A stretch of DNA of 64,000 bases, taken from assembly GCA_963514005.1 (NCBI GenBank), contig OY740814.1, positions 2,356,001 to 2,420,000 of the forward strand, read 5' to 3'. Shown here piece by piece: positions 6,377-50,852 of the stretch; the first letter of the stretch is position 1; each line of letters opens with the position of its first letter. Both the position numbers and the translations under genes were made by a program. Source of the DNA: Raja brachyura. Its lineage: Eukaryota. The notes beneath the pieces are model-generated. The model searched no databases and was not told the origin of the DNA. It was given only the letters and a program-made list of their open reading frames with translations.

Positions 6377-6932
6377 TAGGAAGGAACTGCAGGCGCTGGT
6401 TTAAATCGAAGATGGACACTCAAAACGCTGGAGTAACTCAGCGGGGCAGGCAGCATCTCAGGAGAGAAGGAACGGGTGACGTTTTGGGTCAAGACCCTTC
6501 AGACTGAATCAGGGGAGAAGGAGATACAAGGAAAAGGAAACGTCAGATGTGAAAACGAGACAAAGGGGATGGAGATCAAGGAAAATGTAGAATAGATCGT
6601 TGTTAGCTAGCAGAAGGGAACAACAAAGCAATTAGAGATAAAATGTCTGTGGTAGCGAGTCTGGGTTACAACGTGGTGGCAGGGCTGGGAGCAGGAATCA
6701 CAGAGGGGGAGCAGTGAGAGAGGGCGTTGCACAACTTGTCACCTTCCCCTCACCCATCAATGAACCACTCTACACTTCCTTGATCAGCGTCTCCCTTGAT
6801 CTGTCATTTTCACACCTTACCTTTTCATATATCTGTGTCTCCCTCTCCCCGACACAGTCTGAAGAAGGGTCTCGACCCGAAACGTCACCCACTCCCCTTC
6901 AGGGATGTTACCCGTCCCGCTGAGTTACTCCA
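6377..6932. mobile_element. Penelope-like pseudo-LTRs, inverted pair
   Basis: Minus arm 6377-6645 and plus arm ~6740-6932, which carries an intact hammerhead core. Confidence 0.8.
6855..6890 (+). ncRNA. Minimal type I hammerhead ribozyme core (representative copy)
   Basis: agu-CUGAAGA-A-GGGU(CUCG)ACCC-GAAA-CG-UC^-ac. All core nucleotides present; palindromic ACGU stem III; stem I weak. Confidence 0.7.
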
Positions 6933-7130
6933 ACACACACTCACACTCAGACACACACACATACACACACACACACACCCTCAGACACACACACACACCC
7001 TCAGACACACACACACACCCTCAGACACACACACACACACACTCAGACACACACACCAACACACACACACACACTCACACTCACACTCACACACATACTC
7101 ACATACTCAGACACTCACTCACACGCACAA
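6933..7130. repeat. (CA)n-rich compound microsatellite with CTCAGACACACA units
   Basis: Direct inspection. Confidence 0.95.
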
Positions 7131-7920
7131 ACATCATCAATGGCTTTTAAAGCTGGAAGTCATTTATTTACCAGACAAAGCCACTATGAAGCACAATGTC
7201 ATGTATAAGATGGCAGATGAAAAATGGCACAATGGGTTTAAGCTGATATATTTACTTAGTGACTGTACAATATTTTAAACTTTGAAAGGATGCACCTTTG
7301 CTCATGATGCTACTGACAGCATACTTTATCTTCTCGCTGCTCCCAGCGTTTATTATATTCATTACCGATTGTCCAAGGTGTGATGTGATTACATCAGGTG
7401 TTGGTCGTTGTAACACAGCAACTTCTCATCTGCCTGAATTATCTGAACAAATTAGATTGTTCTAGGCGGGTTATGGCCACACTTACATACGTTAATGAGA
7501 TTACAGGGAATTGATTGAAATAATCTTCCTTGATTTGAATGTAGTTTAGTTGTCACATTATTATGCAGTAAAAAATAACAGTTCATATCGTTTGGTGGAA
7601 TTGCTGTAAGACGCGTTTCAGAGACAGCTATGCTGCTACCATGTGATGTATTGAACACTAAAGGCTTAACACTGTTTAATGTTGAATCCTTAAGACACAG
7701 ACGTCTGGAGGACGTCAATGGATATTGTTATAGATAGATTCTTAGTACGTGTGTCAGGGGTCATGGGGAGAAGGCAGGAGAATGGGGTTAGGAGGGAGAG
7801 ATAGATCAGCCATGATTGAATGGCGGAGTAGACTTGATGGGCCGAATGGCTTAATTCTACTCCTATCGCTGAGTGCTACAAAGTGCTAGAGTAACTAGCG
7901 GGTCAGGCACCATTTCTCAA

Positions 7921-14640: not shown

Positions 14641-15007
14641 TGGTCTGAAGAAAGGTCCTGACTCAAAACGTCATCTATCCATGTTCTCCACAGATGCTGC
14701 CTGACCCGCTGAGTTACTCCAGCACTCTGTGAAGAATATGGATAGGTGACGTTTCACAGAGTGCTGGAGTAACTCAGTGGGTCAGGCAGCATCTGTGGAG
14801 AACATGGATAGGTGACGTTTCACAGAGTGCTGGAGTAACTCAGTGGGTCAGGCAGCATCTGTGGGGAACATGGATAGGTGACGTTTCACAGAGTGCTGGA
14901 GTAACTCAGCGGGTCAGGCAGCATCTGTGGGGAACATGGATAGGTGACGTTTCACAGAGATGCTGCCTGATTCTCTGAGTTACTCCAGCACTTTGTGTCT
15001 ATCTTTG
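14641..15007. repeat. PLE pseudo-LTR with internal inverted tandem array of a 66-bp unit (~3.3 copies)
   Basis: GTTTCACAGA recurs at 14751, 14817, 14883 and 14949. Confidence 0.9.
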
Positions 15008-15527: not shown

Positions 15528-16102
15528 TTTTGCTTGCAGATGCTGACTGCCACAGTGGGGACCACTTAACCTTATCGCAGAGAAGTATTACATGGAGGCA
15601 TTGTTCTTCAATGCTGGTCTCCTTGCATTTGAAGTTCCGGGCTGTTGATTACTTGGATGACTTGCAGAGTGACTGATGCCTGACGGGAACTCATGATCTG
15701 ATGGCCCTGTATGGGGGTGAACGCTACGCCTGCAATCAGGGTGGAAGCAACAGAGATTTCTGAGCCAGCACACAACTAAAGACTTGGATTTAAGAGAGAG
15801 AGAAAGATTAGCATCTGTTAAAAAAAAGTTTGTAATGGACAATGAGAATAAATCTTCATTGTATTGGAAGGAACTGCAGATGCTGGTTTACACTGAAGAT
15901 AGACACAAAATGCTGCAGTAACTCAGCGGGACAGGCAGCATCTCTGGAGAGAAGGAATAGGTGATGTTTCGGTTCGACACCCTTCTGCAGACTTTGAAGG
16001 CTCTCGACCTGAAATTCACCCATTCCTTCTCTCCAAAGAATGCATGAAGTTGGAGAAGTCAATATTCATACCGCTGGGTTGTAAGCTGCCCAAGTGAAAT
16101 AT

Positions 16103-16235
16103 CTTCTTTCATGTGGCGTGCACAGCCTTAAGTTGTAGGACAACATGTTCTATTTGTCCTTCCGTTTCTGCACGTCGAGTTGATTGCATTAATCGAAACA
16201 GGGCGGACCACGTGAAGGTTGCAATCTTCCACCCC
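16103..16235 (-). mobile_element. Short retroposon with 5' HDV-like ribozyme, copy 2
   Basis: 11-bp TSD AAGTG(A/T)AATAT at 16092-16102 and 16236-16246; AAAGAAG tail; homologous to 61-183. Confidence 0.88.
16182..16235 (-). ncRNA. Minimal HDV-like ribozyme fold, catalytic C replaced by U
   Basis: GGGGUGG-AA-GAUUGCA-ACC-UUCACGU-GGU-CCGCCCU-G-UUUCGA-UUAA-UGCAAUC. P1 7 bp with G1.U wobble, P2 7 bp, P3 3 bp. Confidence 0.8.
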
Positions 16236-16589
16236 AAGTGTAATATGAGGCACCATTCCTCCAGTTCCAGGCCCTTCGGCCCACTGAGACCATTCTTACC
16301 ATCAATCACCCGTTCACACTAGTTCTATGTTATCCCGCATTGGAATAATGTAGAACTAGTGAAGGGGTGATTGCTGGTCGGAACAGACTCAGTGGGCCGA
16401 AGGGCCTGTTTCCATGCTGTATTTCTAAATTAAGCTCTGGCTGTTCTGGTGGGTCAGGCTTCCATATCAAGGTTAAGAGACGGGATTTGTGCATTTGACT
16501 CCTGGGAGCAGTTATTGATGTTGGCAATCGGCCAACAATCATGCCACCACTTGAATCCCGGCTCTGTGCCCAAAGAGCTTTGACTGAGT

Positions 16590-49490: not shown

Positions 49491-50533
49491 GACTTGTCAA
49501 AGTCAAAAGAGTTTATTGTCATGTGTCCCTGACAGGACAATGAAAATCTTTCTTTGCATAACACAACAGAACATAGTAGGCATTGACTACAATTATATAC
49601 ATAAATACACACATGAATGAATAAATTGATAAAGTGCAAATAACAGATGGAGGGGTATTAATGTTCAGAGTTTTGTCCGAGCCAAGTTTAATAGCCTGAT
49701 GGCTGTGGGGACTTGTGAATGGGTGATTGATGGACTCGGTATCAATCAATCAACCAATTGCTCAGTCTCTTGAAGCTTTATCTGAGAAGTCATTAATTCC
49801 AAACTTGCCTGTGATATCTGTCCCACTGCCACAGGGAGCTCTGATGACATTGAGGAGGCGTACATTTCTTTTAAGGCAACTTTCACTCACAATTGCATTT
49901 AACACAGTTTAACAATCTAACCTCTCTTGGGAAATTAGAAATACTTGGCAGGAAGGAATGCAGATGCCAGTTTACACCAAAGTTAGACACAAAATGATGG
50001 AGTAACTCAGAGGGACCGGCAGCATCACTGAAGAGAAGGAATGGGTGATGTTTCTGGTCGAGACCCTTCTTCAGACTGAGAGTCGTGGAGAGGGAGACAG
50101 AGATAAGTCCTCTTAGTTATTGCAGTTGGTAGAAGGTTGTTTTCATTTTGTCAAAGTGTCTTAACTAGTTGTAACTTGTTTCTGTGCGTTCTTCCCAACT
50201 AGTGGAAAAAGGAAAACAGCCGGGCGAGATTTATATTGCGTAATATGAAGATCTAATGGATTGTTCCTTAAGAATAATGTTTACTCGGGTAAAATGGTTG
50301 GTTTGAGTGTGTGCGTTCTGCCAACAATGAGAAAGGAGGAGCAGTTTAGACAGCGGGTGGTGCCGCATAGTACCGAGGTCACAGTGGACACCGGGGCTCT
50401 GCTACTCTCCCTCTCCCCCCTCCTCACGACCCGACGGTCCACCTGTCACTACTGGCACTCGTGGAATAGGCAACCTTAGTAAACTCGCACTGACCCTATG
50501 TGGTCTCGTGTCAGAGTTTCCCACTTGGTTTCA

Positions 50534-50852
50534 GCACGGAGCTCCCTCCCCTGTGGTCTTTGCACGGAGCTCCCTCCCCTGTGGTCTTTGCACGGAGCTC
50601 CCTCCCCTGTGGTCTTTGCGCGGAGCTCCCTCCCCTGTGGTCTTTGCGCGGAGCTCCCTCCCCTGTGGTCTTTGCACGGAGCTCCCTCCCCCGTGGTCTC
50701 TGCACGGAGCTCCCTCCCCCGTGGTCTCTGCACGGAGCTCCCCCCCGTGGTCTCTGCACGGAGCTCCCCCCCATGGCCTTTGCATGGAGCTCCCCCGTGG
50801 TCTCTGCAAAGAGCTCCCTCCCCCGTGGTCTCAGCACGGAGCTCCCTCTGTG
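50534..50852. repeat. 28-bp GC-rich minisatellite (~11-12 units)
   Basis: Unit GCACGGAGCTCCCTCCCCTGTGGTCTTT (starts 50534, 50562, ...). Confidence 0.95.

Follow-up and report, generated by a model that had tools for sequence, protein, structure and literature searches.

A short dispersed retroposon of Raja brachyura that opens with a minimal HDV-like ribozyme fold

Whether self-cleavage in vivo sets the 5′ end of a dispersed retroposon is a standing question, and the element described here makes it testable with existing RNA data. It is a 133-nt non-coding retroposon, one copy of which lies on the minus strand of the window (by which we mean the whole 64,000-nt stretch of contig OY740814.1 that was analysed) at positions 16235–16103. 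A sequence-only reading of this locus had proposed a non-autonomous retroposon of a new SINE kind, whose first base, G1, would be the cleavage site of a CPEB3-type ribozyme. We examined the copy, its genomic family, RNA reads that cover the family and the LINEs of the same genome, and we describe which parts of that proposal stand and what probably sets the 5′ end.

The element and its genomic family

Every helix and linker claimed for a nested double pseudoknot in the first 54 nt is present in the sequence as written (Table 1), including G37 opposite C22, a P4 remnant of 6 nt that is, to our knowledge, at the known minimum, and a 4-nt J4/2 that leads into the 3′ strand of P2. With 18 of 18 pairs formed and a 7-bp P1 running from G1, we assign the predicted fold to the HDV-like class, as defined by its nested double pseudoknot of P1, P2, P3 and P1.1. 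The U noted at the catalytic position is there as well, and the window copy is a C-to-U mutant of a family that has C. The hairpin predicted in the body is not significant against shuffles (z −1.27 and −1.54), and a coding origin of the body was set aside, as a C-terminal profile of the homologous LINE proteins did not match it. The window is otherwise dense in short interspersed repeats unrelated to the element (families D1, D2, D4, D7, D13, D14 and D17; 10–25 copies each) and holds tandem arrays at about 6885–7160, at 14726–14960 (66-nt unit) and at 50491–50800 (28-nt unit); none of its ORFs of 150 aa resembles an intact gene.

Table 1 Features of the short element in the window.
Feature	Position in window	Strand	Remarks
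Whole copy of the short non-autonomous retroposon, young subfamily, 133 nt	16103–16235	−	Member of a family of about 35,000 copies
Minimal HDV-like ribozyme head (predicted), 54 nt: P1, J1/2, P2, P3, L3, single-pair P1.1, 6-nt P4 remnant, J4/2	16182–16235	−	From sequence, descriptor and family alignment
P1	16235–16229/16206–16200	−	7 bp, opening with G1·U36
P2	16226–16220/16188–16182	−	7 bp; J1/2 is 2 nt
P3	16219–16217/16209–16207	−	3 bp
L3	16216–16210	−	7 nt
G1	16235	−	Element 5′ end, predicted cleavage site and adapter junction in RNA reads of family copies
Catalytic position (predicted), first base of J4/2, element position 44	16192	−	U in window copy, C in family
ATG, last A of J4/2 and first UG of P2′	16187–16189	−	Same place as ORF start of LINE families A and B
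Body with predicted hairpin inside a longer stem	16115–16181	−	Not significant relative to shuffled sequence
3′ end and start of (GAA)n tail	16103–16118	−	
5′ copy of 11-bp target-site duplication (TSD)	16236–16246	−	
3′ copy of TSD	16092–16102	−	One mismatch; then GGG, a 3-nt microhomology with the element start
Second window copy, older subfamily	63–183	−	J4/2 CGAA, with the catalytic C; P1 lacks two of its pairs; TSD of 10 bp

A search of the species' own genome (2.70 Gb) returned 2,365 candidates, from which 40 were scored and the best 30 fetched. All 44 BLAST matches in the fetched loci and the window start at element position 1; one is the window copy seen twice and another is cut by a locus edge, which leaves 42 for counts. 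G1 is present in 42/42 aligned copies and the catalytic C in 37/42, in a set that is biased towards full length because 29 of the 42 were picked as best matches. Copies met incidentally give the same picture (12/12 start at position 1 and 11/12 have the catalytic C), as does a random sample of 38 stretches of 10 kb (380 kb), in which all five copies found are full length and from which we estimate about 35,500 copies per genome (95% interval 11,500–83,000). An exact 35-nt core that spans the catalytic site has at least 4,714 matches genome-wide, 4,467 with C and 247 with U at that site (C in 95%); the reversed pattern, used as a control, has none. The sequence-only reading had staked its case on copies whose 5′ ends do not extend heterogeneously past G1 and on a consensus that keeps the P1, P2 and P3 pairs and the C of J4/2, and this is what the family has.

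The family has kept the putative catalytic C that the window copy lost. By hand count, the CpG (CGAA) context occurs in 71 of the first 100 U copies listed versus 29 of the first 100 C copies listed, an excess that fits the decay expected after insertion, and no U subfamily has been amplified among the exact core matches. The young and older subfamilies differ at 2 of 54 head columns, in J1/2 and at the second base of J4/2 (CUAA in the young, CGAA in the older subfamily), both unpaired and non-catalytic, and at 12 body columns (old group n = 7).

TSDs of 10–15 bp were located in 38 of 41 copies examined, abutting G1 in 28 and lying 1–2 nt off in 10, and tails are (GAA)n. The proposal that an 11-bp TSD puts the boundary exactly at G1 does not hold for the window copy taken alone, which has one mismatch and whose target runs on with GGG, leaving the junction uncertain by up to 3 nt; it does hold at the level of the family. 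A dispersed, high-copy element with TSDs, a simple-repeat tail and no ORF is a non-autonomous non-LTR retroposon, as had been claimed. A T at position −1, present in 29/41 copies, was considered as a signal and rejected as mostly a selection artefact, since the search query included the window copy's own −1 T; among incidental copies it occurs in 3/11.

RNA 5′ ends at G1 and what may set them

At least half of the sampled element words are present in 20 runs from 11 studies, eight labelled organisms among others. Three raw RNA runs (X22, single-cell; X23 and X24, bulk; 3–5% of each) and a contig run (X17) were aligned to an intact copy in which G1 is position 1502; the organism that the reads come from may be a relative of the window's host and not the same species, and the figures below apply among the loose-end rows listed. 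In X22, at least 1,132 reads carry loose, unaligned letters upstream of G1, with a median length of 31 nt and an agreement of 0.75. Their consensus is identical throughout to the template-switch oligo given in 10.1101/2025.06.03.657745, ending in GGG beside the four G of the element itself. Had the adapter invaded the strand at this GGGG, a total of four G would be seen and the loose end would sit one base earlier; the consensus is instead the GGG of the adapter followed by the element's own start, and we rejected strand invasion as an artefact. Weaker template-switch consensuses precede G1 in X23 (at least 442 reads, agreement 0.42) and X24 (at least 567 reads, agreement 0.45), with a variant ending that we take to be the oligo of a common kit; contig run X17 shows no template-switch consensus before G1 among the rows listed.

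Adapters joined directly to G1 show that some RNAs begin at the predicted cut site. Loose ends that begin one base before G1 (at least 311, 559 and 316 reads in X22, X23 and X24, respectively) are longer and resemble genomic flanks, so that RNAs starting at G1 occur beside RNAs running in from the flanks. In X22 the loose 3′ ends consist of A-runs, as would be expected of oligo-dT priming in the tail. Short cDNAs are favoured in these runs, and the reads starting at G1 are pooled over catalytic-site genotypes, among which the C-to-U copies form a built-in control for the question of cleavage in vivo. At element position 32 (L014:1533), 15–27% of reads have a G-to-A change that turns the U5·G32 wobble into a U–A pair; position 32 is also a CpG site, so a subfamily and decay are indistinguishable there.

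In our view, self-cleavage of longer transcripts probably produces the G1 ends, and a Vingi-type protein probably copies the products in trans. A copy would be transcribed within a longer RNA, and the many reads that run into the flanks may represent such precursors. The head would then fold and cleave 5′ of G1, releasing a compact 5′-OH RNA that begins with the first base of the element; this chemistry we infer from the fold and the conserved catalytic C. A Vingi-type APE/RT, the candidate partner, would bind the 3′ end in trans, nick the DNA and reverse-transcribe, yielding full-length copies with the TSDs and tails that are seen. The short element would accordingly have retained the 5′ HDV-like ribozyme of a LINE, now almost without P4, together with a LINE-type 3′ end, and copies losing the catalytic C, the window copy among them, would be dead ends.

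The same element could instead have its 5′ end set by a promoter inside the head, of the kind described for Pr77, with a pseudoknot that is weakly active or only protects the RNA or binds the LINE protein, a reading that we regard as unlikely. The heads of L1Tc and NARTc are described as promoter and ribozyme in one (PMC3383444; here and below, statements cited to PMC numbers refer to the parts of those papers available to us), and because the Pr77 head is both, excision from read-through transcripts in place of a promoter is put conditionally here. Template switching works on 5′-OH, 5′-phosphate and capped ends, works best on capped RNA and prefers a 5′ G (PMC6885630), so the G1 ends may be transcription starts that are over-represented. 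Moreover, no cleavage was observed for some SIDER heads of trypanosomatids whose fold is plausible (PMC4035085), and an HDV-like fold has been proposed to aid R2 insertion by stabilizing the template RNA (PMC11331408). On the other hand, the catalytic C is present in the short element and in all three LINE head families described below, and in 95% of the exact core matches, while the neighbouring base varies; this argues against a purely protective fold, which would not need a catalytic C. An internal promoter and cleavage are, in any case, not mutually exclusive.

LINE families with related 5′ ends

The candidate partner for copying in trans comes from LINEs of the same genome. Among 20 extra endonuclease loci, L110:742–3903 is a decayed copy, about 3.1 kb long, of a LINE that we call family A. 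It has APE and RT domains and a C-terminal cysteine/histidine motif, with no RNase H match in a domain search, and it begins with an HDV-like fold whose P4 region is 41 nt. The first 16 nt of this copy also occur as a short tandem duplication. Full-length protein relatives are about 1,000–1,050 aa long with APE and RT, and the RNase H Pfam domain is found in 0 of 120 listed homologues; no named Vingi reference is among these homologues, and PDB matches are only to L1 and R2 relatives. The Vingi layout is described as a compact single ORF with APE and RT and without RNase H (PMC13708176), and we class families A to C as putatively Vingi-type by this architecture, not by a tree with named references, and for B and C from the 5′ part only.

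Searching the genome with the L110 endonuclease recovered family A at about 80–89% identity, family B at about 50–57% and weaker groups at about 30–46%. Family B too begins with an HDV-like fold, and both families were reached through their protein, not through the fold; at least two Vingi-type LINE families with 5′ HDV-like folds are thus seen at L110:742–3903 and L149–L178. A third head, family C, was found as a 5′ fragment at L147:779–845 (plus strand, on C5), followed by the start of a similar ORF. This head, 67 nt long with a 5-bp P4 and J4/2 CGAA, has its catalytic C at base 57, in agreement with the CPEB3 numbering, and scores 35.2 bits (E = 1.2e-5) on the Rfam model HDV-F-prausnitzii. 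At L147:779–1000 the first codons of the Vingi-type ORF have ACG in place of the ATG of the other families, and the sequence breaks off beside an RTE relic.

In families A and B the junction of J4/2 with P2′ supplies the start codon, whose A is the final base of J4/2 and whose UG is the first two bases of P2′. With anchors set by eye, 15/17 copies have an ATG at this junction; it is in frame with the start of the endonuclease in 15/17, of which three read across an internal stop. The same Met begins P0003, a homologue that was called independently, and an ATG is also retained at the corresponding position of the short element. Its head shares 26/37 core positions with family A, 24/37 with family C and 19/37 with family B. 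We therefore take its 5′ end to be homologous, as judged from sequence, to LINE 5′ ends of the same genome. At the other end, the older short subfamily finishes with ...CATACGCAAGAAG, similar to the ...CATTCGCAAGAAG of L110, with the common tail ...CGCAAGAAG; its last ~17 nt match the 3′ end of family A, as does the (GAA)n tail. The fold and start-codon place that it shares with Vingi-type LINEs point to an internally deleted LINE derivative like SIDEs and NARTc, not to the new SINE class that had been claimed, and the short element is best read as a bipartite non-autonomous LINE derivative of the SIDE/NARTc/RIME type that probably inherited its ribozyme head from a longer reverse-transcriptase element.

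A parent LINE with exactly this head or body was not found among families A, B and C, the ~17 nt of tail being common to family A, and the body has no match outside the short-element family in 970 kb of fetched loci. Such a pattern would also be left by a hybrid, in which a Vingi-type head was joined by a template switch to a body and tail of other origin and is mobilized by a LINE other than the head donor; R2/R1 hybrid SIDEs are indeed known (PMC3414825). We hold this to be quite improbable, given the match of the last ~17 nt and the tail to family A and the lack of similarity between the short element and the genome's RTE family. RTE was rejected as a partner on the latter ground, 30 loci of the PF20049 family being without similarity to the ends of the short element, and the best 30 PF14529 loci gave no BLAST match to it either. 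The RTE-type family (L119–L148, PF20049) is itself abundant and decayed, with 847 candidates.

Two further observations concern these LINEs. Family B copies at L165–L167, L170 and L177 (versus L175 and L178) keep the ATG while other sequence replaces the ribozyme, and their clustering on C6 near 91.08–91.14 Mb suggests DNA-level duplication of a 5′-replaced copy. At L169:1307–1435 a short-element copy is inserted antisense inside a family A copy, beside a G-run, and is therefore younger than that LINE copy.

Very unlikely, too, is a conventional Pol III SINE whose tRNA-type head has degenerated and starts at G1. The element is short, has discrete 5′ ends and contains no run of four T within the unit, as such a SINE might. 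Yet, as the earlier reading had said of the A and B boxes, tRNA features are wanting: no tRNA was called in four loci, and the best matches to the A- and B-box consensus sequences are no better than shuffles (37–97% of 2,000 shuffles score as well). The homologous heads, moreover, belong to protein-coding LINEs. The element is thus not a SINE in the strict sense of a tRNA-, 5S-, 7SL- or snRNA-derived head with internal Pol III boxes.

Returning to the LINE-derived head and its fold, a strict HDV descriptor found 32 matches in 1,034,752 bases searched, all within the four head families (short element, A, B and C), against none in 2,069,504 bases of shuffled sequence; the 54-nt head shuffled 100,000 times gave none either. 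The fold of the short-element head is far beyond chance. Compared over 18 pairs, the four heads have 0/54 comparisons broken and 21/54 changed on both sides, and 13/18 pairs covary, a count that is partly circular because the heads were parsed with a descriptor demanding those pairs. The covariation that the sequence-only reading had looked to is seen in this count across heads, and it is nearly absent within the family because copies are only 2–7% from the consensus. Rfam at its gathering threshold has no match in the whole window, and at E ≤ 10 none for the window copy or for a mutated old copy; an intact copy has sub-threshold matches only, to HDV-F-prausnitzii (16 bits against a cut-off of 44), over precisely the 54 nt of the head, and to HDV_ribozyme (14.7 bits against a cut-off of 50). 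Since these models include the P4 helix, the low scores lessen the support for those Rfam families and not for the fold class. That a repeat should show this pseudoknot by chance can hardly be credited in view of the shuffled controls, the both-side changes across four independent heads and the family C score, for all that the Rfam scores of the short element lie below cut-offs and its nested-fold energy is not unusual (z −0.04, by a method blind to pseudoknots).

Comparison with known ribozyme-headed elements

As read here, the element works like NARTc, RIME, SIDERs and R2 SIDEs, so its kind is already known; ribozyme-headed short retroposons have so far come from trypanosomes and fly rDNA. 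NARTc, RIME and SIDER (Ingi clade, Pr77/L1TcRz head) are likewise short non-coding partners of an APE-type LINE, with an HDV-like ribozyme, a cut site at +1 and a common short 3′ end, and differ in their trypanosomatid hosts and in a 77-nt head with a P4 helix (PMC3383444, PMC4035085), whereas in the short element the head spans 54 nt and P4 is all but missing, the tail is (GAA)n and copies number about 10^4 in an animal genome of 2.7 Gb. Drosophila R2 SIDEs and R2/R1 hybrid SIDEs also combine a 5′ ribozyme with the 3′ end of a LINE and target-primed reverse transcription (TPRT) in trans; they are rare and site-specific in rDNA (PMC3414825), whereas the short element occurs dispersed in many copies and its candidate partner is of the APE type. 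Vingi-1_EE is similarly a bipartite derivative of a compact, single-ORF LINE without RNase H (as cited in PMC5786205).

Among ribozymes, drz-Mtgn-1 and the theta ribozymes resemble the head in lacking a P4 domain and in having the catalytic C first in J4/2, and C-to-U served as the inactive control for such minimal HDV-like ribozymes (PMC10879173). Nearly 99% of the latter lie in tailed phages, often beside tRNAs, in a survey whose eukaryotes were human, mouse and protists (PMC10879173), whereas the fold described here heads an animal retroposon. The mammalian CPEB3 ribozyme shares with it G1·U36, U20/G25, C22, a single G–C pair with U–U beside it in P1.1 and a 4-nt J4/2, and differs in being single-copy, intronic and endowed with a full P4 (PMC4836649, PMC9901934). 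The designation 'CPEB3-type' was therefore too strong: with a P4 of only 6 nt and no match of the Rfam CPEB3 model at E ≤ 10 to any of the three heads scanned (short element, families A and C), the likeness is a lead within the HDV-like fold class and not membership.

In the article texts available to us we found no report of the short-element family, which may already be listed in repeat catalogues. Nor did these texts yield an HDV-like ribozyme that is ascribed to Vingi by name, or an animal retroposon that starts with a ribozyme lacking P4. Some of the ribozymes reported in 2011 for animal 'Ingi' elements may belong to Vingi. The available part of an elephant-shark SINE paper mentions neither a ribozyme nor Vingi (PMC5499810), and HDV-like ribozymes have already been reported from lamprey, lancelet and sea urchin (PMC8256844).

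Beyond the probable self-cleavage at G1, we offer a wider reading as a speculation with somewhat less than even prospects: that a P4-less 54-nt ribozyme is active in vivo at thousands of animal-genome sites, freeing a promoterless retroposon from host transcripts and incidentally cutting sense-strand host pre-mRNAs, and that Vingi-type LINEs generally start with HDV-like ribozymes, the start codon being drawn from J4/2–P2′, whose relics could be a source of solitary vertebrate ribozymes such as CPEB3. Isolated HDV-like ribozymes of vertebrates would thereby gain a candidate origin, and no natural collection of HDV-like ribozyme mutants would be larger than a family of tens of thousands of near-minimal copies. 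The LINE heads described here point to HDV-like ribozymes in Vingi-type LINEs, which are under development as gene-insertion tools (PMC13708176), and the function of their 5′ UTR would then have a mechanism.
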